From Candidatus Egerieisoma sp. (GTDB lineage: Bacteria > Bacteroidota > Bacteroidia > Bacteroidales > UBA932): DNA of 64,000 bases. Shown here piece after piece: positions 3,946 through 63,063 of this stretch (position 1 is its first letter; each line of letters opens with the position of its first letter). Both the position numbers and the translations under genes were made by a program. A model generated the notes under the pieces. It was not told where the DNA came from and searched no databases. It saw nothing but the letters and a program-made list of their open reading frames with translations. The stretch spans positions 5,108 to 69,107 of the forward strand of contig JAZNUT010000018.1 of NCBI GenBank assembly GCA_045592425.1, written 5' to 3'.

Positions 3946-5607
3946 TTACATACTACGTGCAAAGATGGTCCAAAGCTCTGCCTTCAAGTCCTCCCAAGTC
4001 TTTGCTGTAGATGATGCATATTTCTGAGTATAATCATTCAGAACCTTTGTAGCCTCCTCTTTTTTACCCTCTTTAAGAAGCTGTGCAACCTCCTTCTCAA
4101 TAAGGGCATTCTCCCTCATCATCTGTTTCTCATAATTTGCAACCTGCTCCTCAAGCAAATGTCTGGTTTTGCCCCAGCTGATGGTTGCAATTCTGTTTGT
4201 CTCCCTGTAAGACCAGATAGCAGCATCCTCACGGTATCTGTGCTGGCCACACACGCCCCAATCTTTAGGCAATTTGGTTACACCTGCATAAATAGGTATT
4301 CTTGGACTCTGTGCAGGATTGTCAAATGAAAAATATGCAACACCACCAATCTCATCAGGCAACCAGTCACGACACTGCATTATGTGTGAGTATGAGCACT
4401 GGATAACAGCAATGGTTCTGATTCTCTCTGTCACGCCAGGTTTGATGTGGTTAAGAAGATCTCTCATATCACCAGGCATAAAGGTAGAAACAGGCTGAGC
4501 CATCTCTTTGTAGAATACGGTCTCACCATTCTCCACTTTCTTTCTGCTCACCTCCACATTAAGATTTTTCACCTGGTCAAACTCAGTACCCTCATAAGTC
4601 TCCCTATAAAATGCGAACATATCCTCTGGAGATACTTTCTTCTCAGGTTTTACAGAGAAAGGAATCTCATCCGCATCATATTTCAAGTTCAAAGATGGCG
4701 CAAGAGTGCTTAGAACCCAATACTCTCTCACAGAGAAAGGTTTTTTGCCGTCATGTACAACTTTCCAGAAAACATAGTCACCCTCTCCGTCCCAATAACC
4801 TATGGCTTTGGAGCGCTCTCTTAGGTTTGTTCCATACATGAAGTTGTCGGGATCATTAAAATCAATCTTTCCAATTCTTGGGATATTGGCAGAAACACCC
4901 ACATGGTCATCAGGAATCCTCTGTGCTGCCCAAAGTGCGCCAGGTTTATCTACAGGTGCTTTCTTTGATTTCTTTGCCTTAGGGTTTTCAGGCAGCTTGC
5001 CGCTACCGTAAATCTCAAAGTGCCAAACCTCATTTTTATCTGCAACTGTAAGACACTCGCCTCCATCTGCATATCCATACTCCTCAGCCAATGCTCCCAT
5101 AAGTGCAATAGCCTCCCTTGCAGTTGAACATCTCTCAAGAGCAATTCTCTCAAGCTCCTCAATCATAAACAAACCGTCATTTCTTCTTAGTTCCTTTCTG
5201 CCTACAGTTGTAGTCTCACCAATAGCAAGCTGTTTCTCATTCATACAAGGGTATGCAACATTAAGGAATCTGTTTGTTGGAACTGTTGGAGCAGGAATCT
5301 CACCCTTTTTCTCCACATTGCGCATATCATCTCTCTCCTCATTGTGCAAAAGGCCCCAATAAATTGCCTGCAACTCGCCAGGTTTGAAAGTCTTGCTCTC
5401 CTCCATAGAGAGCCATGTACGGTAATTTGAGTCACAAGAGTGTGCAGTCATTACAGAACCGTCAGAACTTGCTTTCTTGCCCACCATGATGGATGTACAG
5501 CTCTCAGCAAAATTCTCATCATCAGGATGCCAGCCATAACTCTGGGCAACCATTACTCCCGACAGCAACAAACCGGCAGCTGCAAGGAACATTCTTTTAA
5601 TCTCCAT
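3946..5607 (-). CDS. secreted peptidase family C69 dipeptidase
   Basis: Signal peptide MEIKRMFLAAAGLLLSGVMVAQS followed by the C69-type N-terminal nucleophile context (ESCTSIMVGKKASSDGSVMTAHSCD). The track start at 5697 is GTG, so ATG at 5607 is preferred. Confidence 0.8.
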   Translation of the reverse strand: MEIKRMFLAAAGLLLSGVMVAQSYGWHPDDENFAESCTSIMVGKKASSDGSVMTAHSCDSNYRTWLSMEESKTFKPGELQAIYWGLLHNEERDDMRNVEKKGEIPAPTVPTNRFLNVAYPCMNEKQLAIGETTTVGRKELRRNDGLFMIEELERIALERCSTAREAIALMGALAEEYGYADGGECLTVADKNEVWHFEIYGSGKLPENPKAKKSKKAPVDKPGALWAAQRIPDDHVGVSANIPRIGKIDFNDPDNFMYGTNLRERSKAIGYWDGEGDYVFWKVVHDGKKPFSVREYWVLSTLAPSLNLKYDADEIPFSVKPEKKVSPEDMFAFYRETYEGTEFDQVKNLNVEVSRKKVENGETVFYKEMAQPVSTFMPGDMRDLLNHIKPGVTERIRTIAVIQCSYSHIMQCRDWLPDEIGGVAYFSFDNPAQSPRIPIYAGVTKLPKDWGVCGQHRYREDAAIWSYRETNRIATISWGKTRHLLEEQVANYEKQMMRENALIEKEVAQLLKEGKKEEATKVLNDYTQKYASSTAKTWEDLKAELWTIFARSM

Positions 5608-5697
5608 AGTTTTAATATTGTTAAGTGTTATAAATTCAGTAACAGTAGCCACAAATATAAAAATTATTCTTAAATTGGCGAGATAAAGCTGTAACAC

Positions 5698-7041
5698 ATG
5701 AAAAATTCATTAAAAACAATACTTGTTGCAACATTTGCACTCCTCTTTGGGACAATATTATACGGAAAGGAAGAGATACAGAAAAACCTCTATGTAATAA
5801 AATTGCATAAAGAGATAGACAAGTCCTCTGCAAGGATGCTCACAGATGCTCTCAAAGGGGCACAGGAACAAGGGGCAGACTACTGCATCCTCAACCTTAA
5901 CACCTATGGGGGAGCTCTGGATGCAGCAGACTCCATAAGGACAGCAATATTGCGCTCCCCTATCCCTGTTGTAGCTTTTATAAACAACCAGGCAGCCTCT
6001 GCCGGAGCCCTTATCTCCATTGCCTGCGACTCAATCTACATGAGCAGCGGAAGTTCCATTGGGGCAGCCACTGTAGTGGATCAGAGCGGAAATGTTCTTC
6101 CCGACAAATACCAGTCATTCATGAGGGCAATGATGCGTTCCACAGCAGAATGCCACCCGAAGAGGGACCCTGAGCTTGCCCAGGCAATGGTGAGTGCAGA
6201 CAGCGTTCTCAGCTTCACCCCTGCAGAGGCCATAGCCAACAACTATTGCGAGGGGATGGCAGAAAACATGGATCAGGTTGCAAAACACCTTGTGGGAGAA
6301 ATGGGACAATATACCATTACGGAGCATAAGATTTCCACACTTGATAAAATTATCTACTTCTTCCTTAACCCTGTTATACAGGGGCTCCTACTGATGCTCA
6401 TCATTGGAGGCATCTACTTTGAACTCCAGAGCCCTGGGATAGGATTCCCTCTGATAGCGGCAATTGTGGGAGTGGTGCTTTATTTTACACCTTTATATAT
6501 TGAAGGATTGGTCCAAAACTGGGAAATAGTGCTGTTCTTTGTTGGAATCATACTTCTACTGCTGGAGATTTTTGCAATACCGGGGTTTGGTGTGGCTGGA
6601 ATCAGCGGATTTATCCTTATCATTGTAACCCTTGCATTTGCAATGATAGACAACGATATAGTATTTGAAACCGGCGGATGGAACCTCAAACCGCTTGTAA
6701 AACCGTTTGCAATTGTGCTTGTCTCCACCACAAGCATGCTGCTTATATCCATATACCTCGCATCAAAACTTTACCCTACAAAAATGTTTTCACACATTTC
6801 ACTGAAAACAGACCTTTCGTCGGGAAAAGAAGGGTTTGTTGGGGTTGAAAAAGAGGGGTTGGACGCTCTTGTGGGGAAAGAGGGTGTTGTAACAAATGAC
6901 CTGAAGCCCCAGGGGTATGTGGAGGTGGATGGAAAAATTTATCAGGCTTCCATACAAACCGGTTATGCCGGGCGTGGAGAAATTGTAAAAATTTTCCGTC
7001 ACGAAGGGGGCCGATTATATTGCAAAAAAGATTTAAAATAG
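5698..7041 (+). CDS. NfeD-family membrane-bound ClpP-class serine protease
   Basis: ClpP-like N-domain (NTYGGALDAADSI, NNQAASAGALISIACD), a central polytopic TM block and a C-terminal NfeD OB domain. Confidence 0.8.
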   Translation: MKNSLKTILVATFALLFGTILYGKEEIQKNLYVIKLHKEIDKSSARMLTDALKGAQEQGADYCILNLNTYGGALDAADSIRTAILRSPIPVVAFINNQAASAGALISIACDSIYMSSGSSIGAATVVDQSGNVLPDKYQSFMRAMMRSTAECHPKRDPELAQAMVSADSVLSFTPAEAIANNYCEGMAENMDQVAKHLVGEMGQYTITEHKISTLDKIIYFFLNPVIQGLLLMLIIGGIYFELQSPGIGFPLIAAIVGVVLYFTPLYIEGLVQNWEIVLFFVGIILLLLEIFAIPGFGVAGISGFILIIVTLAFAMIDNDIVFETGGWNLKPLVKPFAIVLVSTTSMLLISIYLASKLYPTKMFSHISLKTDLSSGKEGFVGVEKEGLDALVGKEGVVTNDLKPQGYVEVDGKIYQASIQTGYAGRGEIVKIFRHEGGRLYCKKDLK

Positions 7042-7084
7042 GTAACTTTGTCCGATTTTGTTAAACCCATACATATATATACAA

Positions 7085-11377: not shown

Positions 11378-12394
11378 ATGGATATATTACTTTTAATTAT
11401 AGGATTGGCGCTTATTATTATAGGCGCCAATTATCTTGTAGATGGAGCCAGTGCAATTGCAAAAAGGGCCGGACTATCCGATTTTATAATTGGAATGACC
11501 ATTGTGGGTATTGGGACATCCACCCCAGAGATGGTAGTTAGTTTTGCATCAGCAATTAAAGGGAATGCAGACATGGCAGTTGGAAATGTTTTGGGTTCAA
11601 ACATGTTCAATACCTTAATGATATTGGGATGCACAGCCCTCCTCTCTCCTATTGCCCTAACCTCAAACAACATTAAAAAAGATATTCCTTTCTCACTGTT
11701 GGCAGCTTTTGTCCTATGCGTAATGGGATGTTCCACAATATTGGACGGAACAACAGCAAACACCATCACCAGAGTAAACGGAATCATGCTTTTGTGCATG
11801 TTTGGAATCTTTATGGCCTATACAATCTATTCCAGCACATCTGCAGCAGGAAGTTCTCTGCATACAAATTCCCCTACAGCAGACAATTCTCTTCCCGACA
11901 GCTCAAATGACAATAATTTGTCGGGAAGGAAAAAGGTGACTCCTGTATGGCTTGCAATCATAATGGTCCTTGGAGGACTCTGTGGGCTGGTATTTGGTGG
12001 AGACATGTTTGTTAACTCAGCTTCTTCATTGGCCCGCAAACTTGGAATTTCTGATGCTGTAATTGCCATGACCATTGTTGCAGGGGGAACTTCTCTTCCA
12101 GAACTTGCCTCATGCATTGTAGCGGCTATAAAGAAAAATACAGACCAGGCCCTTGGAAATGTTATTGGCTCCAATGTGAGCAACATTTTCCTTATCCTTG
12201 GAGGAAGTGCCACCATCCATCCGCTGGTAATGAACGGTGTAAAGCCACAAGACCTTATAACCCTGATGCTCAGTGCCCTGCTGGTATTCCTGTTTGCATT
12301 TACATTCAAGAAAAAGAAAATTGACAGGATAGAGGGGGGATTGCTCGTATGTATATACATTGCATTTATCTGGCTCTCACTATCGGCATTGTAA
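11378..12394 (+). CDS. CaCA-family Na+/Ca2+ (YrbG-like) antiporter
   Basis: Two alpha-repeat halves (GTSTPEMVVS; GTSLPELASC) separated by a hydrophilic loop. Confidence 0.85.
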   Translation: MDILLLIIGLALIIIGANYLVDGASAIAKRAGLSDFIIGMTIVGIGTSTPEMVVSFASAIKGNADMAVGNVLGSNMFNTLMILGCTALLSPIALTSNNIKKDIPFSLLAAFVLCVMGCSTILDGTTANTITRVNGIMLLCMFGIFMAYTIYSSTSAAGSSLHTNSPTADNSLPDSSNDNNLSGRKKVTPVWLAIIMVLGGLCGLVFGGDMFVNSASSLARKLGISDAVIAMTIVAGGTSLPELASCIVAAIKKNTDQALGNVIGSNVSNIFLILGGSATIHPLVMNGVKPQDLITLMLSALLVFLFAFTFKKKKIDRIEGGLLVCIYIAFIWLSLSAL

Positions 12395-13011: not shown

Positions 13012-13707
13012 ATGGCAAAATTATATGACTTGCTTACAGAAGACTACAGAATAAAGGAAGGGCTGAAAGCGTGTATCAATTGTGGTACATGTACAGCAAT
13101 TTGCCCTGCAGCGGAGTTCTACAAATATGATCCGCGCAGGATAGTGGATATTGTACAGAGCAAGGATGAGGCACAGATTGAAGAGCTTCTTAAGAGTGAG
13201 ACAATCTGGTATTGCGGAGAGTGCATGTCATGCCTTACAAGGTGTCCCCGTAAAAATGCACCGGGGCTGATAATTATGGCCCTGAGGAACCTCTCAATGG
13301 AATTGGGCTATTTTACACACAGCGAGAAGGGAAGACAACAATATGCACTCACAAAAATAATGTCTGAAAACATCCTCAATTACGGCTACTGTGTATATGC
13401 CAGAACCTTCAAATCAGCAGACCACCCGGAGGCCGGACCTGTTTGGGAGTGGATTGAACAGAATATGGATGATGTATATGAGCGTAATGGTGCAAATCTG
13501 GATGGAGAAGGTCCTGGAGCTCTCAGAAAGATACCTCAGGAAGATCTTGACCAGCTGAAAAGGATCTTTGACCACACCGGAGCAACAAAAAGGATTGAGA
13601 CCATTAACCGCTGCTCCATGGAGAAGGCAAAAGAGATGGACCTTACTCCCGACGAATACTTCAACCATGTATTCAACGTCTCTGAAAAGGAGCATTTGAA
13701 CCAATAG
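13012..13707 (+). CDS. HdrC-like 2x[4Fe-4S] protein
   Basis: Two ferredoxin motifs, CINCGTCTAICP and CGECMSCLTRCP, with HdrC-type spacing; 231 aa. Confidence 0.75.
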   Translation: MAKLYDLLTEDYRIKEGLKACINCGTCTAICPAAEFYKYDPRRIVDIVQSKDEAQIEELLKSETIWYCGECMSCLTRCPRKNAPGLIIMALRNLSMELGYFTHSEKGRQQYALTKIMSENILNYGYCVYARTFKSADHPEAGPVWEWIEQNMDDVYERNGANLDGEGPGALRKIPQEDLDQLKRIFDHTGATKRIETINRCSMEKAKEMDLTPDEYFNHVFNVSEKEHLNQ

Positions 13708-13719: not shown

Positions 13720-14784
13720 ATGATATACCAAGGAAAACAGAAAATATGGAGTGATTATCAGAAGGAGATTCCCGATGACCACTACTTTTATGTAAGGAGC
13801 TGTATCAGACAGAACCTTTTTCCTGCCAGTGAGAAGACTTTCCTGGACATAACCAGGAACAAGCTGGGGAAGGATTTCTTTGAGACAGAGCACCATACCA
13901 CCTGCGGAGGAATAGCGTACCATTGTGACACCATTCCTCAGGAGACCTCCATGACCATTATTGCAAGGCAATTCGCCCTGATGCACAAATACGGTTATGA
14001 GAACTATGTATGCTCATGTATAACCTCGTTCGGCTTATATACAGAGACACTTGAGACATGGCATGAATTTCCCCAACTTGAGGCAAAAATTAGGGAAAAC
14101 CTTTGGGAAACCTGCCGTCTTGAGTTTGCCAAGCCAAAATACCTTGCCCACGCAAGTGACATAATATACAAATACCGCAACCTGATTGCCGAACAGGCCA
14201 AATATAAGCTTATAAATAAAAAAACGGGCGAGCCTCTAAGAGTTGTTGAGCACATTGGATGCCACTACGGAAAAATGTTCCCGAGCAAGAGTGTCGGAGG
14301 GGCAGAATACCCTTATGTACTTGCCGGAATGATTGAAGCATGGGGAGGAGAAGTGATAGATTACCCTGAGAGGAGACACTGTTGCGGCTATGGCTTCCGC
14401 CAATACCACATTAGGAGCAACAGAGGTTACTCTTTGGCCAACACTCACAAGAAGTTTGAGAGCATGGAGCCTTACAAACCGGATATGATAATTACCAACT
14501 GCCCCGGCTGTCCATATTTTCTTGACCGTTGGCAATATGTAATAGCTGAAATGGAGGGTAAAACCTATGGAGAAAACGGCCACGGAATCCCTGTATTCAC
14601 CTATGAGGAGGTTGCCGGACTTGTCCTTGGGTATGACCCTTGGGATTTGGGACTTCAGATGCACCAGATTGGCCCCGAGCCTCTACTGGACAAAATGGGA
14701 ATCCCATACGACCCTAACGCCAAGTACAAAGGGGTAAACAACAAAGATTTGGGCAGACCGGAACTCCCAAGTTGTTTGAAATAA
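13720..14784 (+). CDS. HdrB-like CCG-domain protein
   Basis: The C-terminal CCG domain is canonical (GCHYG...RRHCCGYG...ITNCPGCP). The N-terminal copy is degenerate (SCIRQ...TTCGGIAYHC...VCSC). Confidence 0.75.
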   Translation: MIYQGKQKIWSDYQKEIPDDHYFYVRSCIRQNLFPASEKTFLDITRNKLGKDFFETEHHTTCGGIAYHCDTIPQETSMTIIARQFALMHKYGYENYVCSCITSFGLYTETLETWHEFPQLEAKIRENLWETCRLEFAKPKYLAHASDIIYKYRNLIAEQAKYKLINKKTGEPLRVVEHIGCHYGKMFPSKSVGGAEYPYVLAGMIEAWGGEVIDYPERRHCCGYGFRQYHIRSNRGYSLANTHKKFESMEPYKPDMIITNCPGCPYFLDRWQYVIAEMEGKTYGENGHGIPVFTYEEVAGLVLGYDPWDLGLQMHQIGPEPLLDKMGIPYDPNAKYKGVNNKDLGRPELPSCLK

Positions 14785-14828: not shown

Positions 14829-15848
14829 ATGAAAAATATAGTAATCATTGGTGGAGGCCCTGCCGGACTGCAGGCCGGTGCAGAATTGAATGATTTGGGC
14901 TACAATGTAATACTCATAGAGAAATCCCCTACCCTTGGCGGACATCTTGCCAAATGGGACAGGCTTTTTCCCAATGGAGAAAAGGCAAGTGATGTACTGG
15001 ACAAGCTTATAAAGCGGATAAACGGGGTAAAATGCTTTACCCAAACTAAAATTCAGAGTATAAACCTCCTTAAAAGTTCTTATAATGTCATCTTGGACAA
15101 CGGTATTACAGTACTGGCAGATGCCGTTCTGTTTGCCACAGGTTTTGACCTGTTCAGGGCACAGAAAAAAGAGGAATACGGATACGGCATCTATGACAGG
15201 GTAATAACAAATGCAGATCTTGAGCAGTGGTTCAGCAGCCACAATGACAAGAGGATAGTAAAGAGCCCAAAAAGGATAGGTTTTGTGCACTGTGTTGGCT
15301 CCCGAGATGAGAAAGCCGGCAACAGATACTGTTCAAAGGTTTGCTGTGCCACTGCCGTAAAACAGGCCTGCGAGATAAAACAGGAGTTCCCTGATGCAGA
15401 GGTATTCTGCTTTTATATGGATTTGAGAATGTTCTCAAGAGGATTTGAGGACATGTACTTGAATGCGCAAAAAGATTACGGAATAAGATTCATCAGAGGA
15501 AGGGTCTCTGAGGTTGCAGAAAACATAAATAAAGAACTGATTGTTAAAGCAGAAGACACTTTGAGCGGGAAACCGGTAAAAGTGACATTGGATCTGCTTG
15601 TACTTATGAGCGGAATGCAGAATTGTGGAGAAGGTGCAGAAGTAGCCTCTCAATTGGGAATACACAACAGTCCGCAGGACGGGTTCTTTGAGACCTCCGA
15701 GGGAATCCTTGGTCTGCAATACAGCAAAAAACCGGGAGTATTCTTTGCAGGTGCCTGCACTGGTCCAAAAACTCTTCCCGACAGCTTGAATGAGGCAAGT
15801 TCTGCAGCCCTTGCAATCCACCAATACATAAAAACCAAGAATAAGTGA
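14829..15848 (+). CDS. short HdrA-like FAD/[4Fe-4S] flavoprotein
   Basis: GGGPAG dinucleotide fold. HCVGSRDEKAGNRYCSKVCC fits the HdrA cluster motif CxGxRDx(6-8)CSxxCC. At 339 aa it matches the short sHdrA/QmoA-size forms. Confidence 0.78.
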   Translation: MKNIVIIGGGPAGLQAGAELNDLGYNVILIEKSPTLGGHLAKWDRLFPNGEKASDVLDKLIKRINGVKCFTQTKIQSINLLKSSYNVILDNGITVLADAVLFATGFDLFRAQKKEEYGYGIYDRVITNADLEQWFSSHNDKRIVKSPKRIGFVHCVGSRDEKAGNRYCSKVCCATAVKQACEIKQEFPDAEVFCFYMDLRMFSRGFEDMYLNAQKDYGIRFIRGRVSEVAENINKELIVKAEDTLSGKPVKVTLDLLVLMSGMQNCGEGAEVASQLGIHNSPQDGFFETSEGILGLQYSKKPGVFFAGACTGPKTLPDSLNEASSAALAIHQYIKTKNK

Positions 15849-16171: not shown

Positions 16172-16210
16172 GAACCTGGAACAGTGCTCTGTTCCAAAAA
16201 TGGAATTGAA

Positions 16211-25245: not shown

Positions 25246-25683
25246 TTATTGCCCTGATTTTTTAAAAATCAGTTTATCAGTAATTAAAAAGTTCACCAAA
25301 CCTGCCAAAATTCTGCTTACAGTATTGATTATTACCAGATTTCCACCGTCCCATAACTTTTCAAACGCCATAACCAACAGCACTCTTATTACAAAAATAC
25401 TCACATTGGAAACATTGTAGGCAGCCAGACGGGTCCAGAATTCCCTGCTGCTTCCCGACGACAACCTGTCATTCCAAATAAAAAACCAACTGCACACAAA
25501 CCCCACAACTATAGAGCATTCATAAGAGATTACAGGAGACACCACAACCTGCCCAGTATATCCTCCAAATACAAATTTGGTAAGTACCCATACAAGTGAA
25601 ATATCTACAGTTCCGGCTATGAGCCCTACCCCTGCAAACTTGATGAAACGCACCAGCGTACTGTCTCCTTTAAAAAGCCCCAT
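25246..25683 (-). CDS. GtrA-family membrane protein
   Basis: 145 aa, 4 TM, with N-terminus RFIKFAGVGLIAGTVD typical of GtrA. Confidence 0.75.
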   Translation of the reverse strand: MGLFKGDSTLVRFIKFAGVGLIAGTVDISLVWVLTKFVFGGYTGQVVVSPVISYECSIVVGFVCSWFFIWNDRLSSGSSREFWTRLAAYNVSNVSIFVIRVLLVMAFEKLWDGGNLVIINTVSRILAGLVNFLITDKLIFKKSGQ

Positions 25684-32071: not shown

Positions 32072-32073
32072 AA

Positions 32074-51715: not shown

Positions 51716-52897
51716 ATGAACTTAAAAACTTTGGCTTGCACCCTTGCAGCCGCAACAACTATGGGAACTATGATTTCTTGTTCAAGCCCCGCTCCTACCA
51801 AGGATGAGATTGCCGTGGCAAAACTGGATTCTCTATTTACCGAGAGATACTCACCACAACCTAACCCAGGTGGTACAGTACTTATTATGAAAGGTGACTC
51901 TATCCTTTATGAGAACAGCTGGGGTATTGCAGACACTGAGCTCAACACTAAAATTGACGGAAATACCTTCTTTAATATTGCATCTGTTTCAAAACAGTTT
52001 ACAGCAGTTGCAATTATGAAACTTCACCAGGAGGGCAAATTGGACATTTACAAAAGCATTTATGATGTTCATCCCGATGTAAACAAATTCCTTCCTAAGA
52101 AGAAAAAACCGTTTACAGACATTAAAGTGAAAGATCTTATGGCCCACTCTTCAGGTATTCCTGATGCAAGACCCCGTACAGACCGCAATTTTATGCTTAC
52201 TGCAACCGATATGGAGTCATTGCAATATATGAAAGACCTTAAAGAGCTTAATTTTGAGCCAGGTACTGCTTATGAGTATATGAACCCAACATTCCAGTTG
52301 CTTTATATTATGATTGAAGCAGCAAGCGGAATGCCGTTTGAGCAGTATATGAGAGAGAATATCTTTACCCCTGCAGGAATGGAGGAGACTCTATACTTCC
52401 AGGCAGACAGAGAGATACCAAGAATGGCTCACGGCTATGTAACAGAGGATGATGATGCTCCAGCTGAAACAAAACAGTTCCGTCAGTATGATTACGGTGA
52501 GGAGACATTCTTTGCAACCAAAGCAGACGGCGGTATCTACACTTCAACTCACGAGTTTGTACAGTGGGAGAAAGCACTAAGAAACAATCTGTTCCTTACT
52601 CCTGAAATGACAGCAGAGGCACACGGCCCAGTAAATCCTATTTCCGGCAGCAAATACAGCTCATACCAGAACAGACCTAACACATCATACGGTTACGGCT
52701 GGTTCATTGAGGAGAACCCTGGAATGCCAAGAAAAGTGTACCATACCGGTGATAATGGTGGATTCCAGATCTACGCAGGCCGCTTCCCAGAGAAAGAGGT
52801 TCTAATGCTTGTATTTGAGAACAGGAACGACCACAGCCGCTGGAAAATGGTTGAGAAACTTGATGCAATTGCAAAGGAGGCAGGTTGGTTGGACTAA
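51716..52897 (+). CDS. serine hydrolase of the beta-lactamase/PBP4* family, lipoprotein
   Basis: Lipobox MISCSS and the SxxK motif ASVSKQF. Confidence 0.8.
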   Translation: MNLKTLACTLAAATTMGTMISCSSPAPTKDEIAVAKLDSLFTERYSPQPNPGGTVLIMKGDSILYENSWGIADTELNTKIDGNTFFNIASVSKQFTAVAIMKLHQEGKLDIYKSIYDVHPDVNKFLPKKKKPFTDIKVKDLMAHSSGIPDARPRTDRNFMLTATDMESLQYMKDLKELNFEPGTAYEYMNPTFQLLYIMIEAASGMPFEQYMRENIFTPAGMEETLYFQADREIPRMAHGYVTEDDDAPAETKQFRQYDYGEETFFATKADGGIYTSTHEFVQWEKALRNNLFLTPEMTAEAHGPVNPISGSKYSSYQNRPNTSYGYGWFIEENPGMPRKVYHTGDNGGFQIYAGRFPEKEVLMLVFENRNDHSRWKMVEKLDAIAKEAGWLD

Positions 52898-52919
52898 CCC
52901 CCTCTTCCCGATAAACAAC

Positions 52920-52955
52920 AGGAGCTGTCATCATGTAAGATGACAGCTCCTTTTC
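52920..52955. terminator. bidirectional rho-independent terminator
   Basis: AGGAGCTGTCATC-ATGTAA-GATGACAGCTCCT followed by TTTT, between convergent genes. Confidence 0.8.
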
Positions 52956-52957: not shown

Positions 52958-53299
52958 TTACATCTCCTTCAACGCCTCAAACGGTATTCCCAGCAATTTC
53001 ATTTTCCGGGCAACAAGGGGCAATTCATTCTTCAGGAACTCTTCCCTCTGAAGTTCCAGAATCTTCTGCGGAGCATCGGGTGACACAAAATACCCTATCC
53101 CTCTTTTGTTGTATATCACTTCCATTCCCTGCAGATGGTCATACACTCTAGCAATGGTGTTGGGATTTACTCCAAGGGAAACACCCAATTCCCGCACTGA
53201 AAGGATTCTTTCATCGGGAAGATACTCTCCTTGAAGGATTTTCTCACAAATTGAATCTGCAATCTGGAGATATATTGGTTTGTTCTGATTGAAATCCAT
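52958..53299 (-). CDS. GntR-family (YhcF-like, short) transcriptional regulator
   Basis: PIYLQIADSI...LSVRELGVSLGVNPNTIARVY winged HTH; 113 aa. Confidence 0.85.
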   Translation of the reverse strand: MDFNQNKPIYLQIADSICEKILQGEYLPDERILSVRELGVSLGVNPNTIARVYDHLQGMEVIYNKRGIGYFVSPDAPQKILELQREEFLKNELPLVARKMKLLGIPFEALKEM

Positions 53300-55049: not shown

Positions 55050-55307
55050 ATGAAACAAAAGAAAATGAGAATTACACTTAAGGACTTTATTCTGGCCAAC
55101 AGAAGGGCCTCAAGGGCAGAAGAAATTGAGAAGTATGGCCAGCAGGTACACAATCGCAGAATGGTACACAAGTCAAAGAAGAAGTACGACAGAAAAGCTA
55201 TGAAAAGAGCTGTCATCAAGGGCGATGACAGCTCTTATTGTTTATTAGGCCTGCAAATGAGACCTACAACACCTTATGGAATGTATAAGAGTTTGCCTGC
55301 GCAGTAG
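55050..55307 (+). CDS. small highly basic protein (hypothetical)
   Basis: 85-aa ORF (MKQKKMRITLKDFILANRRASRAEEIEKYGQQVHNRRMVHKSKKKYDRKAMKR...). It resembles small basic Bacteroidetes proteins from memory. Its 3' end overlaps the convergent SDR gene by 44 nt. Confidence 0.4.
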   Translation: MKQKKMRITLKDFILANRRASRAEEIEKYGQQVHNRRMVHKSKKKYDRKAMKRAVIKGDDSSYCLLGLQMRPTTPYGMYKSLPAQ

Positions 55308-56025
55308 GCATAATTACCATATCATTGATGTTTACATGTGGCGGGCATTTTACCATATAAAGGATTGCATCTGCCACATCCATTGCGGTAAGTGGGGTAA
55401 ACCCTTTATAGACATTGTCTGCACGCTCCTGATCCCCTTTAAAACGGACAATTGAGAATTCTGTCTCCACAGCTCCAGGGCATATCTGGGAAACCCTTAT
55501 GCCATAAGGCAACAAATCAATTCTCATCCCTTTTGTAAGGGCATCTACGGCGTGTTTGGTGGCACAATAGACATTTCCATTGGCGTATGCCTCCTTGCCT
55601 GCAATTGAACAAAGATTTACAATGTGTCCGCTACGGCGCTCTTTCATATAGTTGGAAACCACGCGGGTTACATACAGCAAACCCTTTACATTGGTATCAA
55701 TCATCCTCTCCCAGTCATCCACCACACCATCCTGCACAGGGTTGAGCCCAACGGCAAGACCCGCATTATTTACAAGCACATCTATTGTCTTCCATTCATC
55801 GGGAAGATTGCCCAAATGTTTCTCCACCTCCTCTTGAGAGCGGACATCAAACACTAATGGCAAAACTTTCAACCCAAATTCATTTTCAAGTTCAAACGCA
55901 AGGGTATCAAGTCTGTCTGCTCTACGACCGGTTATTATCAATTTATAACCTTCTTTTGCCAAAAGGGCTGCAGTTGCCTCCCCTATTCCGGAAGTGGCAC
56001 CGGTAACCAATGCTATTTTTGCCAT
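55264..56025 (-). CDS. SDR-family NADP-dependent oxidoreductase (YdfG-like)
   Basis: TGATSGIG cofactor motif, NNAG, and the YxxxK motif (YCATK). Confidence 0.88.
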   Translation of the reverse strand: MAKIALVTGATSGIGEATAALLAKEGYKLIITGRRADRLDTLAFELENEFGLKVLPLVFDVRSQEEVEKHLGNLPDEWKTIDVLVNNAGLAVGLNPVQDGVVDDWERMIDTNVKGLLYVTRVVSNYMKERRSGHIVNLCSIAGKEAYANGNVYCATKHAVDALTKGMRIDLLPYGIRVSQICPGAVETEFSIVRFKGDQERADNVYKGFTPLTAMDVADAILYMVKCPPHVNINDMVIMPTAQANSYTFHKVL

Positions 56026-56026: not shown

Positions 56027-57139
56027 TTACAATGTATATGCTATATTCTCAACCTCATTCATCACCCTTAGGAAGTTCTCACCAAGGATACATTTTATAT
56101 CCTCATCTGAATAACCTCTAAGCTTCAATTCCTCTGTAATCACACCAAATTTTGAAGCATCCTCCAATCCTGCAGGAGGTGACTCAATGCCGTCAAAATC
56201 AGATCCCAAACCAACATGTTTCACACCTACAAGCTTAACGACATGGTCTATATGATCCACAAGCAGCTTATATGAAGGTCTTGGGGTTGAATACAAAGCC
56301 TCATACGCCTTCTCATATCTCTCCTTGCGGCGTTTGCAGCGAGGATGCAACTGGTAATCAATTATAGCCTCATCAAACTCATCACACAAGTGTCCTGCTA
56401 CTTTAGAATACTCAGGATCTATGAAAGAAGAATAGAAGTTAATCTGAATTACACCACCTGCAGCAGCCAAATCCTTGATCATCTGGTCTGTCATATTGCG
56501 TGGATGGTTGCACAAAGCCCTGCAGCAAGAGTGGGTAGCCACTATTGGAGCCTTTGAATACTTCAAACAATCATAGAAAGACTCATCTGAAAGGTGAGAA
56601 ACATCAATCATCATACCCAAACGGTTCATAAGGGCAATAACCTCTTTGCCAAATGGGCTCACACCTCCCCATCTCTTCTCTTTAGGGGCACAAGAATCAC
56701 AAATCTCATTATTCCCAGCATGGGTAAGTGTCATATAACGGACACCCATCTTGTAGAACAGCTTGAGCAAAGAAAGATCCTTCTGGATAGGGGAACCGTT
56801 CTCCAATCCAATAAAGATTGCTGTTCTCCCCTGAGCCTTAAGTTTACGTGCCTCGCGTACTGTAGTTGCCAACCCCACTTTTTTAGGGTTCTCATCTATA
56901 ACCTCGTGGGTTAAGGCAATAAGTTGTAGGGCACGTCGGGTAGCCTCGTCGGGAGAAAGTGAATTTGAGGTGTAGGCTGCAAAGAAAACACCATCAACGC
57001 CACCATCTTTAAGGCGGTCAAAATCTATATGCCCCAATTTTCGTCTTTTTGACACATCCTGGCCACGAATTATTGCCAATGGGGTATCACAATGTGAATC
57101 AAGCACAAAGGCCTCCTTGTGAAGTTCTGCTGCTGTCAT
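56027..57139 (-). CDS. M19-family membrane dipeptidase
   Basis: FVLDSHCDTP and DVSHLS motifs. The track start at 57169 is TTG, so ATG at 57139 is preferred. Confidence 0.85.
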   Translation of the reverse strand: MTAAELHKEAFVLDSHCDTPLAIIRGQDVSKRRKLGHIDFDRLKDGGVDGVFFAAYTSNSLSPDEATRRALQLIALTHEVIDENPKKVGLATTVREARKLKAQGRTAIFIGLENGSPIQKDLSLLKLFYKMGVRYMTLTHAGNNEICDSCAPKEKRWGGVSPFGKEVIALMNRLGMMIDVSHLSDESFYDCLKYSKAPIVATHSCCRALCNHPRNMTDQMIKDLAAAGGVIQINFYSSFIDPEYSKVAGHLCDEFDEAIIDYQLHPRCKRRKERYEKAYEALYSTPRPSYKLLVDHIDHVVKLVGVKHVGLGSDFDGIESPPAGLEDASKFGVITEELKLRGYSDEDIKCILGENFLRVMNEVENIAYTL

Positions 57140-57254: not shown

Positions 57255-57746
57255 ATGAACCGGCAAACCAACATAAAAGAGATATACGGCCAATATGCAC
57301 AGCAGCTCTATTTTACAGCTCTGCGCATAACAGGGAGCAGTTTTGATGCGGAAGAGGTTATGCAGGACACAATCCTCAAATACCACAACTTCCCCCAAAA
57401 GGAGGGGATAGAGAAACTGGGGAGCTGGCTCAAGAGCGTATGCATACGCAAGGCTCTGGACAAACTGAGGGAAAAACACCGCACAAAGGAGTTCCTGGAG
57501 GAATACAAAGAGGAACAGATACCTGCCACACCTCCGCAAGTGCAATACACAGTGGAGGAGATAAGGAAAACCCTCCTCCTTCTTCCCGACAATTACCGCA
57601 CAATCCTCTCCCTGCACCTGTTTGAAGGGTACGATTACCAGGAGATTGAGCAGATAACCGGCACAAAAGAGGCAACCATAAGGAGCCTCTACAAAAGGGC
57701 AAAAGAGAAACTTGCCGCAACAATACTGGAAAACAAAAAGAATTGA
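57255..57746 (+). CDS. ECF-type RNA polymerase sigma-70 factor
   Basis: Region 2 (EEVMQDTILKY...WLKSVCIRKALD) and region 4 (LPDNYRTILSLHLFEGYDYQEIEQITGTKEATIRSLYKRAKEKL). Confidence 0.88.
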   Translation: MNRQTNIKEIYGQYAQQLYFTALRITGSSFDAEEVMQDTILKYHNFPQKEGIEKLGSWLKSVCIRKALDKLREKHRTKEFLEEYKEEQIPATPPQVQYTVEEIRKTLLLLPDNYRTILSLHLFEGYDYQEIEQITGTKEATIRSLYKRAKEKLAATILENKKN

Positions 57747-57747: not shown

Positions 57748-58254
57748 ATGGAAAATTTGGAAAAATACATACAGGACAATCTGGAGCAGTTCAACAAAGG
57801 AGAAATGCCTTCAGGACACCAGGAAAGATTCCTTGCAAAACTGGAAGCACTCCAATCCCAGGAGTGGCACCAGGAGCCAAAGCCACACCGCCTGCCAATC
57901 CGCAGAATCCTCTTTGCAGCCTCTGCAGCTGCGGCAGCAATAATCATTGCCCTGTTTGCAACCCTGCAGCCCGGCAACATAGGGCAATCATACAGCATTG
58001 GAATACAGGAAATGGCCCAGGAAATGTACACAGAAGAGGCAGAAATCCTGCAGATGCTCCCAGAAGATGACCTGCAGATGATAAACTCAGTAAAATCAAT
58101 AACCCAAGAGGCCATTCCCCTTACAGATCTTCTTCCCGACGAACTTTCCCCTGAAAAACGGGCAGAAATCCTCAGGGAATACTACAAGGCAAAGACAGCG
58201 GGACTCAAAAAGATAAAGACACTTTATGCGCAGAGTGACGAACCAATAGATTAA
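57748..58254 (+). CDS. probable anti-sigma factor (single TM)
   Basis: ATG lies 1 nt after the sigma stop. It has an N-terminal cytoplasmic segment, one TM helix (ILFAASAAAAAIIIALFA) and a C-terminal tail. Confidence 0.5.
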   Translation: MENLEKYIQDNLEQFNKGEMPSGHQERFLAKLEALQSQEWHQEPKPHRLPIRRILFAASAAAAAIIIALFATLQPGNIGQSYSIGIQEMAQEMYTEEAEILQMLPEDDLQMINSVKSITQEAIPLTDLLPDELSPEKRAEILREYYKAKTAGLKKIKTLYAQSDEPID

Positions 58255-58275: not shown

Positions 58276-59148
58276 ATGAAAAGATTCTTCTTTACATTGG
58301 CAATAATTGCAGTGGCAACAATCTCTGCAATTGCCCAGAACAAACTTACCAAAGAGTACAAATTTGGAAAGATAACAAGCATTGAGGCAAGTTCGGTATA
58401 CGATATTGAGGTTACCCAGGGCAACTCCGGAACCGTAAAGGTGGTATATGATGAATTTTTTAAAGACAGGCTCATGGTCAACTATATCAACGGAAAACTC
58501 AATCTGGAAGTAGCCTCTACCAAAATGAGAAACAACAACAGGAACATTGAGGGGATAAAAGTATACCTGCAGATGCCTACCATAGAGGAACTGGACCTTT
58601 CAGGAGCATCATCACTCAAGGCAATGGGTTCATTCAAGACTGATGAACTTGATGTGGAACTTAGCGGAGCCTCTTCAATTTCAGGACTTGTAATAAGCGG
58701 AAACGACCTCTCACTGGACTGCAGCGGTGCAAGCAACCTCAATCTGAGAGGAGACTTCAAGACAATAGAAGCAGAAATATCCGGAGCATCAGAAATAGTG
58801 CTCAACAGCAACAGCACTGTATTTGAAGGGGAATTCAGCGGAGCATCAACCGTAAAAGTGTACGGAGACCACAAAAACACAGATGTAGTATGCTCAGGAG
58901 CCTCAAACCTCACCCTTGAAGGAAAGACAGACTACATAAAATCTGTAACCACCGGCGCAAGCAATCTGAAGGCCCAGGAATTCACCGCCCTTAACGGATA
59001 TGCCCAGGTAAGCGGAGCCAGCAACGCAAAAGTAAGATGTACCGGAGACCTGAAAATTATGGTGGGCCGTGCCTCAAAACTCACCTACTACGGTAACCCC
59101 AACATCATAAACCTGAACACAGACAACAACATAAAAAAAGGGGATTGA
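58276..59148 (+). CDS. DUF2807 / head-GIN-domain beta-helix protein, secreted
   Basis: Signal peptide followed by repeated SGAS(x)(x) turns (8 copies of GAS/GASN) typical of DUF2807. Confidence 0.7.
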   Translation: MKRFFFTLAIIAVATISAIAQNKLTKEYKFGKITSIEASSVYDIEVTQGNSGTVKVVYDEFFKDRLMVNYINGKLNLEVASTKMRNNNRNIEGIKVYLQMPTIEELDLSGASSLKAMGSFKTDELDVELSGASSISGLVISGNDLSLDCSGASNLNLRGDFKTIEAEISGASEIVLNSNSTVFEGEFSGASTVKVYGDHKNTDVVCSGASNLTLEGKTDYIKSVTTGASNLKAQEFTALNGYAQVSGASNAKVRCTGDLKIMVGRASKLTYYGNPNIINLNTDNNIKKGD

Positions 59149-59170
59149 TACGCACCCCTCTCAAAAACAG

Positions 59171-59208
59171 AAACTGTCGGGAAATTTTCTTCCCGACAGT
59201 TTTTTATT
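59171..59208. terminator. bidirectional terminator built from an inverted pair of the over-represented word
   Basis: AAACTGTCGGGAA-ATTTTC-TTCCCGACAGTTT followed by TTTATTTT, between convergent genes. Confidence 0.85.
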
Positions 59209-59209: not shown

Positions 59210-60130
59210 TTAAAGATCACCTATCTGTTCAATGCTCAAGCCTGTCAGCTCGCTGATTGAACCATTGTCCATTCCTTTATCTTTCATTTTCTTTGCTATT
59301 TCCAAGGATTTTTTGGCCATACCCTGCTCAAAGCCCTTCTCCATTCCCTGTTCAAGTCCTTGCCTAAGCCCCTTTTCAATGGCATAATCAAGGCAAGCAT
59401 GATTGTCCCTGTAACGTTTAAGCCGCTCATCATAAATCAATTTCTCTTTAGGAGAAAGAGATGCAACGTCTGCATCCTCCAGGACACCTATAAATACCTC
59501 ACGTATATGCTCACTTAATCCATGCTCATAAACTTCCTGTTTCAATTCCTCTATTGTCTTCATACCCTCTTTCATTTGAATGAGTAAATATAACAATTTT
59601 TCATAGAAAGATTCACATTCTTCTATGTCGTCTTTTTCAAGGCACGGCAATTGGAGCATTATAAAATTCAGCCGGTCGGATAATAAATTATTTGTTCCTG
59701 GCTCACACAGCATAAAGTCTCTACGTAAAACAGGATCCTTTTCATATGCATAGTTCATCAGACAGATGCTATATACTTTTTTAATGTCATACTTCCATTC
59801 CTGGCCCTTTTCGCCCATCTGATCTATAAGACGACATGCATAATATAGCATTCGATTATGCATATATCCAATTCCTGCATTCTGTACTTCTATAAGATAC
59901 ATTTCTCCTTTGCTATCTTTACATAAGATATCAAAAATACATTCTCTGCCATCTTTATCCAATGGAATATTTTCATTATTAAGATAGCTTAAATCAACAA
60001 TAGGATCATCAAACTCCAATAGCATATTAAGAAAACCAATCAGATTCTTCTTGCTCCTTTCTGTTCCGAACAGGTACTTGAATCCCCAATCTACAAACGG
60101 ATTCAAAACGCCACTTCTACCCTCTTTCAT
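59210..60130 (-). CDS. Rpn-family recombination-promoting nuclease / PD-(D/E)XK putative transposase
   Basis: N-terminus NPFVDWGFKYLFG and nuclease core FDILCKDSKGEMYLIEVQN. The track start at 60136 is TTG, so ATG at 60130 is preferred. Confidence 0.8.
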   Translation of the reverse strand: MKEGRSGVLNPFVDWGFKYLFGTERSKKNLIGFLNMLLEFDDPIVDLSYLNNENIPLDKDGRECIFDILCKDSKGEMYLIEVQNAGIGYMHNRMLYYACRLIDQMGEKGQEWKYDIKKVYSICLMNYAYEKDPVLRRDFMLCEPGTNNLLSDRLNFIMLQLPCLEKDDIEECESFYEKLLYLLIQMKEGMKTIEELKQEVYEHGLSEHIREVFIGVLEDADVASLSPKEKLIYDERLKRYRDNHACLDYAIEKGLRQGLEQGMEKGFEQGMAKKSLEIAKKMKDKGMDNGSISELTGLSIEQIGDL

Positions 60131-60416
60131 ACACAATAGTTTTAAACATTCTGAACAAAACTATCAAACCTTGCTACAAACAACAAGAAGATGGGTAAAA
60201 TTTACGCCAACATTTTTATCTAATAAAAGAAATTGATTGTAAAAAGAAAAAAATCTCACTCCAAATGGTTTATTGCACATTCGTAAAACAGTCCGTAGGA
60301 TATTCAAAATCTTTCTTAATTATTATCAGTGCAATGTATATTGATATAGAATATATGCTTTAAAGGAAACAAGCTTCTAAAAAAGCGCCTAAATCTTACG
60401 ATTCAGACGCTTTCTT

Positions 60417-61385: not shown

Positions 61386-62543
61386 CTATCTGTAAAATGC
61401 TTTAATTCCTTTGCAAATATAATGCAATTGTTCCTCCGAAAGTTCTGTATGCATAGGCAATGACAATACTCTTCTCGAGAGTTTTGTTGCCACCTCCAGT
61501 TTGTTTTCCCCTTCAAGGGCCGCAGCACCTCCCGCCACTTTTGCAATTGGGATAAAAGCCTCCTGCCTCTGCAAAGGGAGCGGGTAATATATCATTGAAG
61601 GAATCTCCCTTTTTGCCAGAAAATCCTTAAGGGCATCCCTTTTCCCATCTGCAACCTTTATGGTAAACTGGTGATATACATGGGTGGTATAATCTGCTGT
61701 TACAGGGAGTTCAATCCCCTCTACAGCGGAGAGCTCATTGATGTAATACTCTGCAGCACTCTGTCGGGAAGCAATATATTCATCCAAATATTTGAGTTTC
61801 ACATCCAGAACGGCTGCCTGCAGGGTATCCAGGCGTGAGTTGCACCCAATCATACTGTGGTGGTACTTCACCTTCTGGCCATGGTTGGCTATGCAATAGA
61901 GTTTCTCTGCCAAGTCTGCGTTGTTGGTGAACATTGCACCGCCGTCTCCAAAACATCCAAGGTTCTTTGAAGGGAAAAATGAAGTGCATCCAATATCTCC
62001 AATAGTACCGCTCTGCGGATTCTCCACACCGTTAATTTCCCATTTCCACCTTGCACCTATTGCCTGGGCATTGTCCTCCACCACATACAGATTATGTTTG
62101 CGGGCTATCTCCATTATGCGCCCCATATTTGCACATTGTCCAAAAAGATGTACCGGAACAATTGCCTTTGAGCGAGGAGTTATTGCCTCCTCTATTTTTG
62201 ATGGATCAATATTGAAAGTATCCCACTCCACATCCACAAGCACCGGAGTAAGTCCCAGAAGGGCTATAACCTCTGCAGTTGCCACATAGGTAAAAGCCGG
62301 AACAATAATTTCATCTCCTCTTTCCAACCTTAAAGACATTAGGGCAATCTGCAGTGCATCAGTTCCATTAGCACATGTAATTGCGTGTGCAGCACCTGTA
62401 TAAGCAGACAAATTTGTAGAAAATTCCTTACATTTGGCACCGTTTATGAACTGAGCTGTATTTATTACTGTTTGCATGGAGGCATCTACCTCTTCCTTAA
62501 TTTTAAGGTATTGCCCAACCAGATCCACCATTTTAATGTTCAT
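61386..62543 (-). CDS. DegT/DnrJ/EryC1/StrS-family sugar aminotransferase (WbpE/GnnB-like)
   Basis: 385 aa with the PLP-lysine context SFFPSKNLG and N-terminus KEFSTNLSAYTGAAHAITCANGTDAL. Confidence 0.88.
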   Translation of the reverse strand: MNIKMVDLVGQYLKIKEEVDASMQTVINTAQFINGAKCKEFSTNLSAYTGAAHAITCANGTDALQIALMSLRLERGDEIIVPAFTYVATAEVIALLGLTPVLVDVEWDTFNIDPSKIEEAITPRSKAIVPVHLFGQCANMGRIMEIARKHNLYVVEDNAQAIGARWKWEINGVENPQSGTIGDIGCTSFFPSKNLGCFGDGGAMFTNNADLAEKLYCIANHGQKVKYHHSMIGCNSRLDTLQAAVLDVKLKYLDEYIASRQSAAEYYINELSAVEGIELPVTADYTTHVYHQFTIKVADGKRDALKDFLAKREIPSMIYYPLPLQRQEAFIPIAKVAGGAAALEGENKLEVATKLSRRVLSLPMHTELSEEQLHYICKGIKAFYR

Positions 62544-62572
62544 ACCGTAACTTTTATATATTTACAAAGATA

Positions 62573-63025
62573 ATGGAAAAAAGGATAACATATATTGTTG
62601 TAACGGCATTGTTCATGCTCTATATAGTGGCGGTGCTGTGCCTTTGCCTGCTTGATTTGTCAGATACCGCACCGGAACTTCCAAAATTCTTCCTGGGTAT
62701 TCCAATGGACAAACTTGCACACTTTCTGATGTACTTTGCCTACCCTGTAGTATGCTGGCTCATGCTTACCTACAACAAACGGATAAAGATAAACCACAAA
62801 TACCTGTATTCCACAATAATTATTACAGGACTGGCCTTTGCAGCCTTTACAGAAACAGCCCAAGGGCTGCTGACATCCTATCGGGAGCCGGATCCAATGG
62901 ATTTTCTGGCAAATACACTTGGCATTTTCTCTGCAACTCTGCTGCTGCGGATATTCCATAAGAGTGCCACAAAGGTTTGCGACAGGATACAGTTGTACAT
63001 GCACAAGAAGGTGCATAAGGGGTAA
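62573..63025 (+). CDS. VanZ-family membrane protein
   Basis: 150 aa, 4 TM, with the DKLAHFLMYF motif. Confidence 0.7.
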   Translation: MEKRITYIVVTALFMLYIVAVLCLCLLDLSDTAPELPKFFLGIPMDKLAHFLMYFAYPVVCWLMLTYNKRIKINHKYLYSTIIITGLAFAAFTETAQGLLTSYREPDPMDFLANTLGIFSATLLLRIFHKSATKVCDRIQLYMHKKVHKG

Positions 63026-63028
63026 ACA

Positions 63029-63063
63029 AAAACTGTCGGGAAGAATATTTTTCCCGACAGTTT
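63029..63063. terminator. second bidirectional terminator built from the same inverted word pair
   Basis: AAAACTGTCGGGAA-GAATATTT-TTCCCGACAGTTT between convergent vanZ-like and htpG genes. Confidence 0.8.

Follow-up and report, generated by a model that had tools for sequence, protein, structure and literature searches.

Strand-symmetric, hyper-abundant DNA words are a known kind of genomic feature, represented by the DNA uptake sequence (DUS) of Neisseriaceae, the uptake signal sequence (USS) of Pasteurellaceae, and the highly iterated palindrome HIP1 of cyanobacteria. Here we describe a word with consensus YTRTCGGGAAGA and core RTCGGGA in a 64,000-nucleotide stretch of contig JAZNUT010000018.1 ("the window" throughout) and in related loci; the kind appears familiar and the phylum, Bacteroidota, new. 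The DUS, a 10–12-mer read by the minor pilin ComP, resembles our word in being non-palindromic, 10–12 nt long, sharp in its core, present about once per kb and strand-symmetric. Embedding in permissive reading frames, conservation across species, and a single-base dialect are also shared, and two inverted pairs of our word form predicted terminators, as DUS pairs do. The two differ in phylum (Bacteroidota vs. Pseudomonadota) and in the share of copies that lie in terminator pairs (about 9% vs. about half); moreover, the DUS varies as dialects among relatives, whereas the deeper relatives of our host carry unrelated words.

The USS, a 9-nt core with AT-rich flanks, is likewise mostly intragenic and frame-biased, with protein and codon constraints opposing it, and has two related subtypes within its family, comparable to the G and A dialects reported below; our word differs in lacking AT-tract flanks and one-mismatch enrichment. 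HIP1 (GCGATCGC) and the alternate HIPs show a 15- to 300-fold excess, lie mostly in genes, have sites conserved between species, and are replaced by other words in some lineages, all of which they share with our word. However, HIP1 is palindromic and its cognate methyltransferases are known, whereas YTRTCGGGAAGA is asymmetric. The function of HIP1 is debated, with roles in methylation or repair, in chromosome structure and, in recent work, in transformation under discussion. Chi and the FtsK-orienting polar sequences (KOPS) or architecture-imparting sequences (AIMS) are also short, asymmetric, taxon-specific and over-represented in core DNA, but they are co-oriented with replication and our word is unskewed. 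Type IIL (MmeI-family) and bacteriophage exclusion (BREX) PglX methylation motifs are not known to be over-represented in host genomes, and no gene of either type was seen in the window.

Abundance and coding context of the word

The word occurs about once per 1.4 kb of the window, counting both strands. The initial annotation had singled out GTCGGGA/TCCCGAC, and exact counting returned the same 31 coordinates (15 on the plus strand, 16 on the minus) and the same 12 copies (5 + 7) of the 10-mer CTGTCGGGAA/TTCCCGACAG. By comparison, 100 dinucleotide-preserving shuffles gave 2.09 ± 1.46 copies of the 7-mer (maximum 8), and an order-3 Markov model predicts 1.67 for the 7-mer and 0.06 for the 10-mer; with one mismatch allowed, the 10-mer is found 22 times, vs. 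1.9 ± 1.6 in shuffles. Ranked by over-representation, the word and its sub-words lead the k-mers of the window at every k from 6 to 10. The choice of GTCGGGA as the unit holds only in part. It is over-represented, but the invariant core is the 6-mer TCGGGA (53 copies vs. 7 expected), and the unit shared across species is RTCGGGA (46 copies), which adds 15 copies of ATCGGGA (hereafter A-type). The overall excess is roughly 15- to 200-fold and survives codon- and protein-preserving shuffles.

A flank profile was built from the 247 TCGGGA copies that the window and 11 related loci (269 kb) contain. It shows preferences for Y at −3, T at −2, R at −1 (G 62%, A 22%), A or G at +1, and A at +3. Sequence conservation among these copies ends about 3 nt from the core on each side, which argues for a word and not a repeat element; no AT-tract flanks were found around the word in the window or the related loci, and core variants with one mismatch show no enrichment. 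The copies that have Y at −1 (10514, 15300) are not kept in relatives, in contrast to RTCGGGA copies, which mostly are, so the functional unit includes R at −1. A dispersed repeat of the repetitive extragenic palindrome (REP) or miniature inverted-repeat transposable element (MITE) type was ruled out, as there is no long conserved unit and 87% of copies are in coding sequences (CDS).

Among the 46 RTCGGGA copies, 19 are sense and 21 antisense within genes and 6 are intergenic (5 of the 31 GTCGGGA copies are intergenic). Genes read the core as xxT-CCC-GAY (Pro-Asp) 19 times, as TCG-GGA (Ser-Gly) 15 times and as xTC-GGG-Axx 7 times, and frames requiring the arginine codons CGG or CGA are rarely used. 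The initial annotation's claim of two dominant frames therefore stands, along with the exceptions it named (23694, 41022, 61763), although a further exception at 57584 had been overlooked. That two frames hold most copies is the one feature that favors an artefact of codon or codon-pair usage or a recurrent peptide motif, which, together with a MITE/REP mobile repeat, we consider to have a negligible chance of accounting for the word. In 500 synonymous-codon shuffles per gene, which preserve every protein and each gene's codon usage, GTCGGGA occurred 2.03 ± 1.37 times in CDS, vs. 26 observed (z = 17.5). The corresponding values are 10.4 ± 3.0 vs. 47 for TCGGGA and 0.06 vs. 8 for the 10-mer, and z ranges from 12 to 33 over the shuffle tests in the window. 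Together with z = 26 in relatives (see below), these values refute the codon-usage and peptide explanations; the absence of long flanks speaks against this group of explanations as well.

The codons that compose the word are themselves rare: CCC makes up 10% of Pro, TCG 5% of Ser, and GTC 6% of Val codons. Nevertheless, CCC is used for 20 of 47 Pro residues before Asp (43%), vs. 53 of 717 elsewhere (7%), and TCG for 18 of 107 Ser residues before Gly (17%), vs. 32 of 989 elsewhere (3%). CCT and CCA are both depleted before Asp, so no single mutation type accounts for the word. The favored pairs CCC-GAY and TCG-GGA are mutual reverse complements, and intergenic hairpins contain the word as well; both points also count against a codon or repeat artefact. 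By contrast, GAGGCTA, a Glu-Ala codon pair in the same window, is sense-biased (18:3). Taken together, these observations place the signal in double-stranded DNA. The word is imposed at the DNA level, contrary to codon preference, and the earlier judgment that it is not a codon-usage accident is upheld by the codon-preserving shuffles, the rare-codon make-up, and the parity of sense and antisense copies.

RTCGGGA is evenly divided between the strands (23:23), while the cumulative GC skew of the window never changes sign. Per-locus counts in 16 related loci show no strand skew of the word in any of them, and the TCGGGA, ATATTCA, and CATTGAC words (the latter two described below) are unskewed in 30 related loci. 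The orientation neutrality first noted for the word is therefore confirmed, but the accompanying suggestion of an architecture-imparting sequence is not, as such sequences are strand-skewed. In favor of a Chi-like hotspot for RecBCD/AddAB or a KOPS/AIMS polar motif for FtsK, it could be said that Chi, too, is a short and asymmetric word that is lineage-specific and enriched in core genes. Such motifs are co-oriented with replication, and the absence of any skew in the window and related loci refutes a role of this type, which we regard as very improbable. Separately, AGCCTC and TAGCCTC (e.g., at 30648–30663) show an apparent skew of 55:14 and 17:4, respectively. Their candidacy as a replication-polar motif was ruled out because they represent the sense-strand Glu-Ala pair GAG-GCT on minus-strand genes.

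Copy spacing is Poisson-like, with a coefficient of variation of 1.06, i.e., random and not even. Motif deserts of 5–7 kb lie over carAB and over the etf/acd/kam operon, a lysine-fermentation/butyrate operon at 27600–40400 (etfAB, acyl-CoA dehydrogenase, kamDE, kamA, and others), and the same deserts recur in the related loci L009 and L024. Only 1 of 13 Pro-Asp sites in the kam region has the word form, vs. 19 of 34 elsewhere. With motif codons excluded, rare codons make up 2.4–3.0% of desert genes (2.4% in the operon) vs. 5.4% elsewhere, and word density correlates with per-gene rare-codon content (rho 0.30, p 0.02). Because the deserts are strongly codon-biased and this correlation exists, we conclude that translational selection opposes the word. 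The possibility that the operon (27.6–40.4 kb) is a horizontally acquired island was rejected, as it is syntenic and a desert in relatives, and is codon-biased.

Two inverted pairs of the word lie between convergent genes. The first (59169–59204; arms 59174–59185 on the plus strand and 59188–59199 on the minus) separates the genes at 58276–59148 (+) and 59210–60136 (−) and folds into a hairpin with a 15-bp stem (−22.3 and −25.3 kcal/mol on the two strands; z −6.4 and −7.2). The second (63030–63063; arms 63033–63044 on the plus strand and 63049–63060 on the minus) separates the genes at 62573–63025 (+) and 63084–63998 (−), with a 13–15-bp stem (−22.4 and −23.4 kcal/mol; z −6.7 and −8.2). Both hairpins have an A-run 5' and a T-run 3', with T-runs flanking 59169–59204 on both sides, and they rank among the four strongest terminator-like hairpins of the 44–64 kb region. 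We therefore have two predicted bidirectional terminators built from the word. Inverted-pair terminators are a hallmark of DUS and USS (10.1101/2025.10.24.684340), and the window has these two clean pairs, which hold 4 of its 46 copies. A third inverted pair (11890–11929) is intragenic, and intragenic head-to-head pairs 13 nt apart recur in relatives.

Two other strong, terminator-like hairpins, at 52920–52951 and 55205–55236, have a common stem, GAGCTGTCATC...GATGACAGCTC. This stem overlaps an extended upstream flank, GCTGTC, that is present at many copies of the word.

Recurrence and turnover in related genomes

To collect relatives, the 621-aa Fe-S protein encoded at 16184–18049 was used as a query against GTDB, with each species represented by a single genome. 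The scan gave 80 loci, nearly all from metagenome-assembled genomes (MAGs) of uncultured gut Bacteroidales, with a best amino-acid identity of 81–83%. Among the locus titles are "Bacteroidales bacterium," "Rikenellaceae," "Ca. Egerieousia," "Ca. Coprenecus," and "Alistipes sp. CAG:435/514." The host clade belongs to the uncultured gut Bacteroidales, near Ca. Egerieousia. Four of the loci (L003, L006, L008, and L013) are titled "Candidatus Egerieisoma sp.," a genus placed in Clostridiaceae by NCBI, and are syntenic with Bacteroidales MAGs. The label "Ca. Egerieisoma" is probably wrong, and Ca. Egerieousia (Bacteroidales incertae sedis) may have been intended.

The 8-mers GTCGGGAA/TCCCGACA rank at the top in all close relatives (L001–L006, L008–L010, L018, L020, and L021), and TCGGGA pooled over the 269 kb occurs 247 times (0.92/kb), with 121 copies on the plus strand and 126 on the minus. 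In five close relatives, 58 copies of GTCGGGA lie in CDS, vs. 4.5 under the synonymous-shuffle null (z 26). The group formed by L007, L025, and L014 instead carries ATCGGGA (dialect TATCGGGA; 26 vs. 4.5 in CDS, z 10), and G and A dialects fall in sister groups in a single-gene tree. L017 is rich in bare TCGGGA (2.4/kb; 52 vs. 17.8 in CDS, z 8). In word-less relatives serving as a control (L016, L019, L023, and L026), TCGGGA is found 20 times in CDS vs. 24.6 expected (z −1). Five independent metagenome contigs of the same lineage (L088–L092), representing other genomic contexts, contain 0.4–1.3 copies/kb. This recurrence, with a dialect and at about 0.9/kb, in independent MAGs of related species bears out the proposal that the word is a genome-wide signature.

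Of 140 comparisons of orthologous cores with word-bearing relatives at 77–84% nucleotide identity, 93 (66%) show an identical core, vs. 33% for background CDS 6-mers (p ~1e-15, with cases that are phylogenetically non-independent). In word-less relatives the relation is reversed, with 3% core identity vs. 12% background. Those relatives use other codons for the same residues (CCT/CCA-GAT for Pro-Asp, AGC-GGA at 16655), from which we conclude that the word is derived and imposed at the DNA level; occasionally the amino acids differ as well, e.g., at 13647. An 8.6-kb block compared across 8 genomes contains 13 sites, of which 3 are universal, 5 are present in 3–6 genomes, and 5 are singletons, such as one in L021 that reads GTCGGGA where the others have CAGTGGA. 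The word is thus conserved yet still turning over, with gain ongoing.

One reading of this conservation is that the copies are selected binding sites of an abundant chromosomal protein (nucleoid-associated, or involved in cohesion or in replication/repair loading) whose specificity varies between clades. Retention at twice the background rate is in its favor, and Xu et al. took site conservation as evidence of selection on HIP1 (PMC5861425). The sharp core without one-mismatch enrichment also fits a binding site, and strand symmetry suits one that is non-directional. Nevertheless, we find this reading improbable. The Poisson-like spacing and the 5–7 kb deserts would be unexpected of sites that have a structural role, several related clades are word-less (the control at z = −1), and overlapping and paired copies suggest that copy number is favored, not position. 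No nucleoid protein is known to impose a word of at least 12 bits about once per kb within genes and against codon preference.

Other relatives carry other words. A clade with titles like "Alistipes sp. CAG:435/514" and a GC content of about 52% (L045, L048, L055, L058, L059, L062–L064, L068, L071, L075, and L077) has strand-symmetric ATATTCA at 1.5/kb, with 106 copies in CDS vs. 15.7 in synonymous shuffles (z 26); about 14% of these copies overlap to give the palindrome TGAATATTCA. In L065 and L073, (G)CATTGAC occurs unskewed at 1.4/kb (51 vs. 10.3 in CDS, z 14), and fits CRTTGAC, the site of the MmeI-family enzyme MaqI, a match that we offer as a lead only. The palindrome CCTTAAGG, which resembles HIP1, is found in L013 alone 6 times vs. 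0.2 under an order-3 model (5 vs. 1.0 ± 1.0 in CDS under synonymous shuffles) and, with L013 pooled with four other loci, 22 times vs. 2.2. Several related clades have no over-represented word at all. Three further sequences, CGTGCGTCA, CGGTGTGCA, and CCCCGTCATCCTG in L053, L074, and L076, have long conserved flanks and look like dispersed repeat elements, distinct from the bare words.

Unrelated words across clades, some of them palindromic or self-overlapping (CCTTAAGG, TGAATATTCA), direct attention to a HIP1-like explanation, the main rival to the uptake-based reading given below, which we judge possible but rather unlikely. A lineage-specific methyltransferase, probably an orphan, would read RTCGGGA(R), and methylation-coupled mismatch or very-short-patch repair would convert near-cognate sites; abundance would then be a by-product of biased repair or reflect a selected methylation-dependent role, and not uptake bias. 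The words are 6–7 nt long, lack symmetry, and have an A close to the 3' end, in which they resemble MmeI/BREX-type methylation motifs, a lead only. The window is strongly depleted in CpG (rho 0.44; 0.55 for the pooled word-bearing clade vs. 0.68 for word-less relatives), but the word nonetheless retains its CpG, and the most depleted neighbors of the core, TCGAGA and TCGGAA, are its G-to-A transitions. Cyanobacterial alternate HIPs, each with its own methyltransferase, parallel the word switches between clades (PMC4390886), and the 87% intragenic location and conserved sites also match HIP1 (PMC5861425).

Several observations stand against this explanation. A palindrome is the defining feature of HIPs and our word is not one; T- and A-ending synonymous codons, and even the Ser codon AGC, have been replaced, for which Vsr-type T:G to C:G correction alone is insufficient; and no methyltransferase or vsr gene was seen among the window genes. 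Known biases that arise from repair, e.g., by E. coli Dcm/Vsr, are also far weaker than 15- to 200-fold. The depletion of neighboring words is confounded by avoidance of the palindromes TCGA/TCGCGA and of CpG at codon junctions. A Vsr-type single-transition signature was accordingly rejected, as the neighbor spectra are confounded in this way and the codon data contradict a single mutation type; the neighbor-word spectra could not separate the models. However, recent work ties HIP1 to transformation (PMC4390886), and through that link the HIP1-like explanation may merge with one based on uptake. As a separate observation, words containing TCGA and TCGCGA are especially rare in the window, and the rarity of CpG and TCGA suggests restriction avoidance or CpG-directed mutation.

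A putative self-recognition signature

The force favoring the word acts at the DNA level, on both strands, and independently of transcription; it works through several substitution types, persists at the genus scale, and is held in check by translational selection. Among established processes, only sequence-biased DNA uptake combined with homologous recombination has all of these properties, and we therefore adopt an uptake-drive reading as the best available one: tentatively, the word would be a lineage-specific "self" signature, comparable to DUS and USS, spread by molecular drive. Biased uptake or recombination is the driving force that we infer. A sequence-specific reader in a DNA-acquisition pathway would favor conspecific fragments bearing the word; the reader might be a receptor acting at uptake, or might belong to a later step at which tagged DNA, possibly in methylated form, is accepted. 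Word-less alleles would be replaced as such fragments recombine with homologous sequence, and molecular drive would spread the word wherever the protein tolerates it, mainly as CCC-GAY (Pro-Asp), TCG-GGA (Ser-Gly), or xTC-GGG-Axx (x-Gly-x). Translational selection in highly expressed genes would counter this spread, and intergenic inverted pairs may have been co-opted as bidirectional terminators. Deserts at the most codon-biased genes are what a weak drive opposed by selection would be expected to leave, and a density of 0.7–0.9 copies/kb is within the range of DUS and USS. The sharp core, the dialect, and the terminator pairs fit this reading as well, and the excess over shuffles, the use of rare codons, the strand symmetry, the retention of orthologous cores, and the ongoing gain also count in its favor.

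A number of points weigh against uptake-driven spread. The terminator pairs hold only 4 of 46 copies (~9%), and no terminator pairs were seen in about 205 kb from relatives, in contrast to DUS and USS, in which about half of the copies are in such pairs (10.1101/2025.10.24.684340). Spacing is random, as noted above. Decayed copies of the USS are common in Haemophilus, and the lack of one-mismatch enrichment here is at odds with that pattern. The words of related clades (ATATTCA, CATTGAC, CCTTAAGG) are unrelated to ours and do not form graded dialects; such switching looks more like the swap of a modular DNA-recognition domain, e.g., of a methyltransferase, than like the drift of a receptor, and intragenic location combined with unrelated clade words fits HIP1 at least as well as DUS or USS. 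In addition, Neisseriaceae and Pasteurellaceae are the only families in which sequence-specific uptake has been demonstrated (10.1101/2025.10.24.684340), and we found no report of a hyper-abundant word in Bacteroidota or Bacteroidales in the literature, either by sequence or by topic.

A broader version of the self-signature reading, which we consider doubtful, takes all of these as clade-specific "identity words" (TCGGGA in its G and A dialects, ATATTCA, CATTGAC, CCTTAAGG, or none), each specified by a swappable recognition module that would gate homologous gene flow. The module would be either an uptake receptor of a new kind or an acceptor linked to a methyltransferase. Sequence-specific DNA self-recognition is established only in two proteobacterial families and debated in cyanobacteria, so identity words, if real, would mean that sequence-tagged self-recognition arose independently a third time, following DUS/USS and HIP1, and for the first time in Bacteroidota. 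In this abundant but uncultured family, they would also imply an unrecognized route of, or barrier to, homologous gene exchange in the gut microbiome, and the word would serve as a practical marker for binning MAGs, assigning hosts, and recognizing foreign DNA. With several independent switches of word along a single phylogeny, the family would also be a comparative system in which phylogenetic profiling could identify the reader protein. Even if repair bias is the cause, a DNA-level force overrides codon preference here and occasionally alters protein sequence.

Gene content and individual copies

The genes of the window are those of housekeeping and fermentation, including ilvD, carAB, sulP, a short-chain fatty acid transporter, the lysine-fermentation/butyrate operon, cinA, and queA. 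The only name associated with competence is cinA, which is not diagnostic. No recorded protein is identical to the KamD encoded in the window, and Rfam and tRNA scans of the window gave no matches. In IMG/VR, a motif-pair scan returned 7 matches, all to unrelated high-GC contigs, and a 14-mer scan returned 97, none with consensus-type copies at host density. The gene at 59210–60136 (−) belongs to a PD-(D/E)XK (PDDEXK_2, Rpn-like) transposase family that is also represented on L088–L092. Its paralogs are diverged, with 59–85% identity within one metagenome, and six of them contain one copy of the word in about 5.6 kb, vs. about 4 expected.

Outside the two intergenic hairpins, the copies are distributed as follows. 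The CDS at 130–1842 contains two A-type copies, TCATCGGGAATA (171–182, +) in antisense and ATATCGGGAGGA (1150–1161, −) in sense orientation. TTGTCGGGATCA (4844–4855, +) is antisense in the CDS at 3946–5697 in the Pro-Asp frame; CTGTCGGGAGTA (5554–5565, −) is sense and encodes Leu-Ser-Gly. TTGTCGGGAAGA is found three times, at 6096–6107 (−), where it is antisense and reads Leu-Pro-Asp, at 48837–48848 (+), and at 57581–57592 (−), where it is read GTC-GGG-AAG. The sense Ser-Gly copy TCGTCGGGAAAA (6817–6828, +) is kept in L001, L004, and L010. All three minus-strand occurrences of CTGTCGGGAAGA match the consensus at 12 of 12 positions: the first (11890–11901) is the left arm of the intragenic inverted pair, with TTGTCGGGAAGG (11918–11929, +) as the right arm, the second (15773–15784) is present in 6 of 8 genomes, and the third (23691–23702) is read GTC-GGG-AAG. 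TTGTCGGGAAGG recurs within cinA (50868–50879, −).

At TCGTCGGGAGTA (13644–13655, −), a Pro-Asp copy, motif-less relatives have Glu-rich codons. Nearby, the A-type copy TCATCGGGAATC (13767–13778, −) is present in all 8 compared genomes, as are CTGTCGGGAACA (17444–17455, +) and the instance of CTGTCGGGAATA at 18786–18797 (−); CTGTCGGGAATA also occurs at 16652–16663 (+), as TCG-GGA where most relatives have AGC-GGA, and at 26281–26292 (−), where it is kept in 5 relatives. The A-type copy CTATCGGGAGCA (20109–20120, +) is shared by 6 of 8 genomes, TTGTCGGGAGCA (26432–26443, +) is kept in 5 relatives, and GGGTCGGGAAGA (27020–27031, +) in 6.

The remaining A-type copies are TTATCGGGAAGA at 21427–21438 (+), 33959–33970 (−), and 52903–52914 (−, intergenic), CTATCGGGAAGC (21952–21963, −), TCATCGGGAAGC (34489–34500, +), TCATCGGGAGTA (35629–35640, −), TTATCGGGAATA (51251–51262, +), ACATCGGGATGA (52069–52080, −), TCATCGGGAAGA at 53211–53222 (+) and 55796–55807 (+), and CTATCGGGAGCC (62878–62889, +). 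Further copies of the word are CCGTCGGGACCA (23579–23590, +), TCGTCGGGAAGC (25450–25461, −), ATGTCGGGAATA (43238–43249, −), CTGTCGGGATTG (44827–44838, +), TCGTCGGGAGAA (56946–56957, +), and TCGTCGGGAAGA, which occurs at 45599–45610 (−) and again at 58131–58142 (−), the latter intergenic between divergent genes. TTGTCGGGATGG (41020–41031, +) is read GTC-GGG-ATG, and CTGTCGGGAAGC (61761–61772, +) is antisense and read TCC-CGA-CAG.

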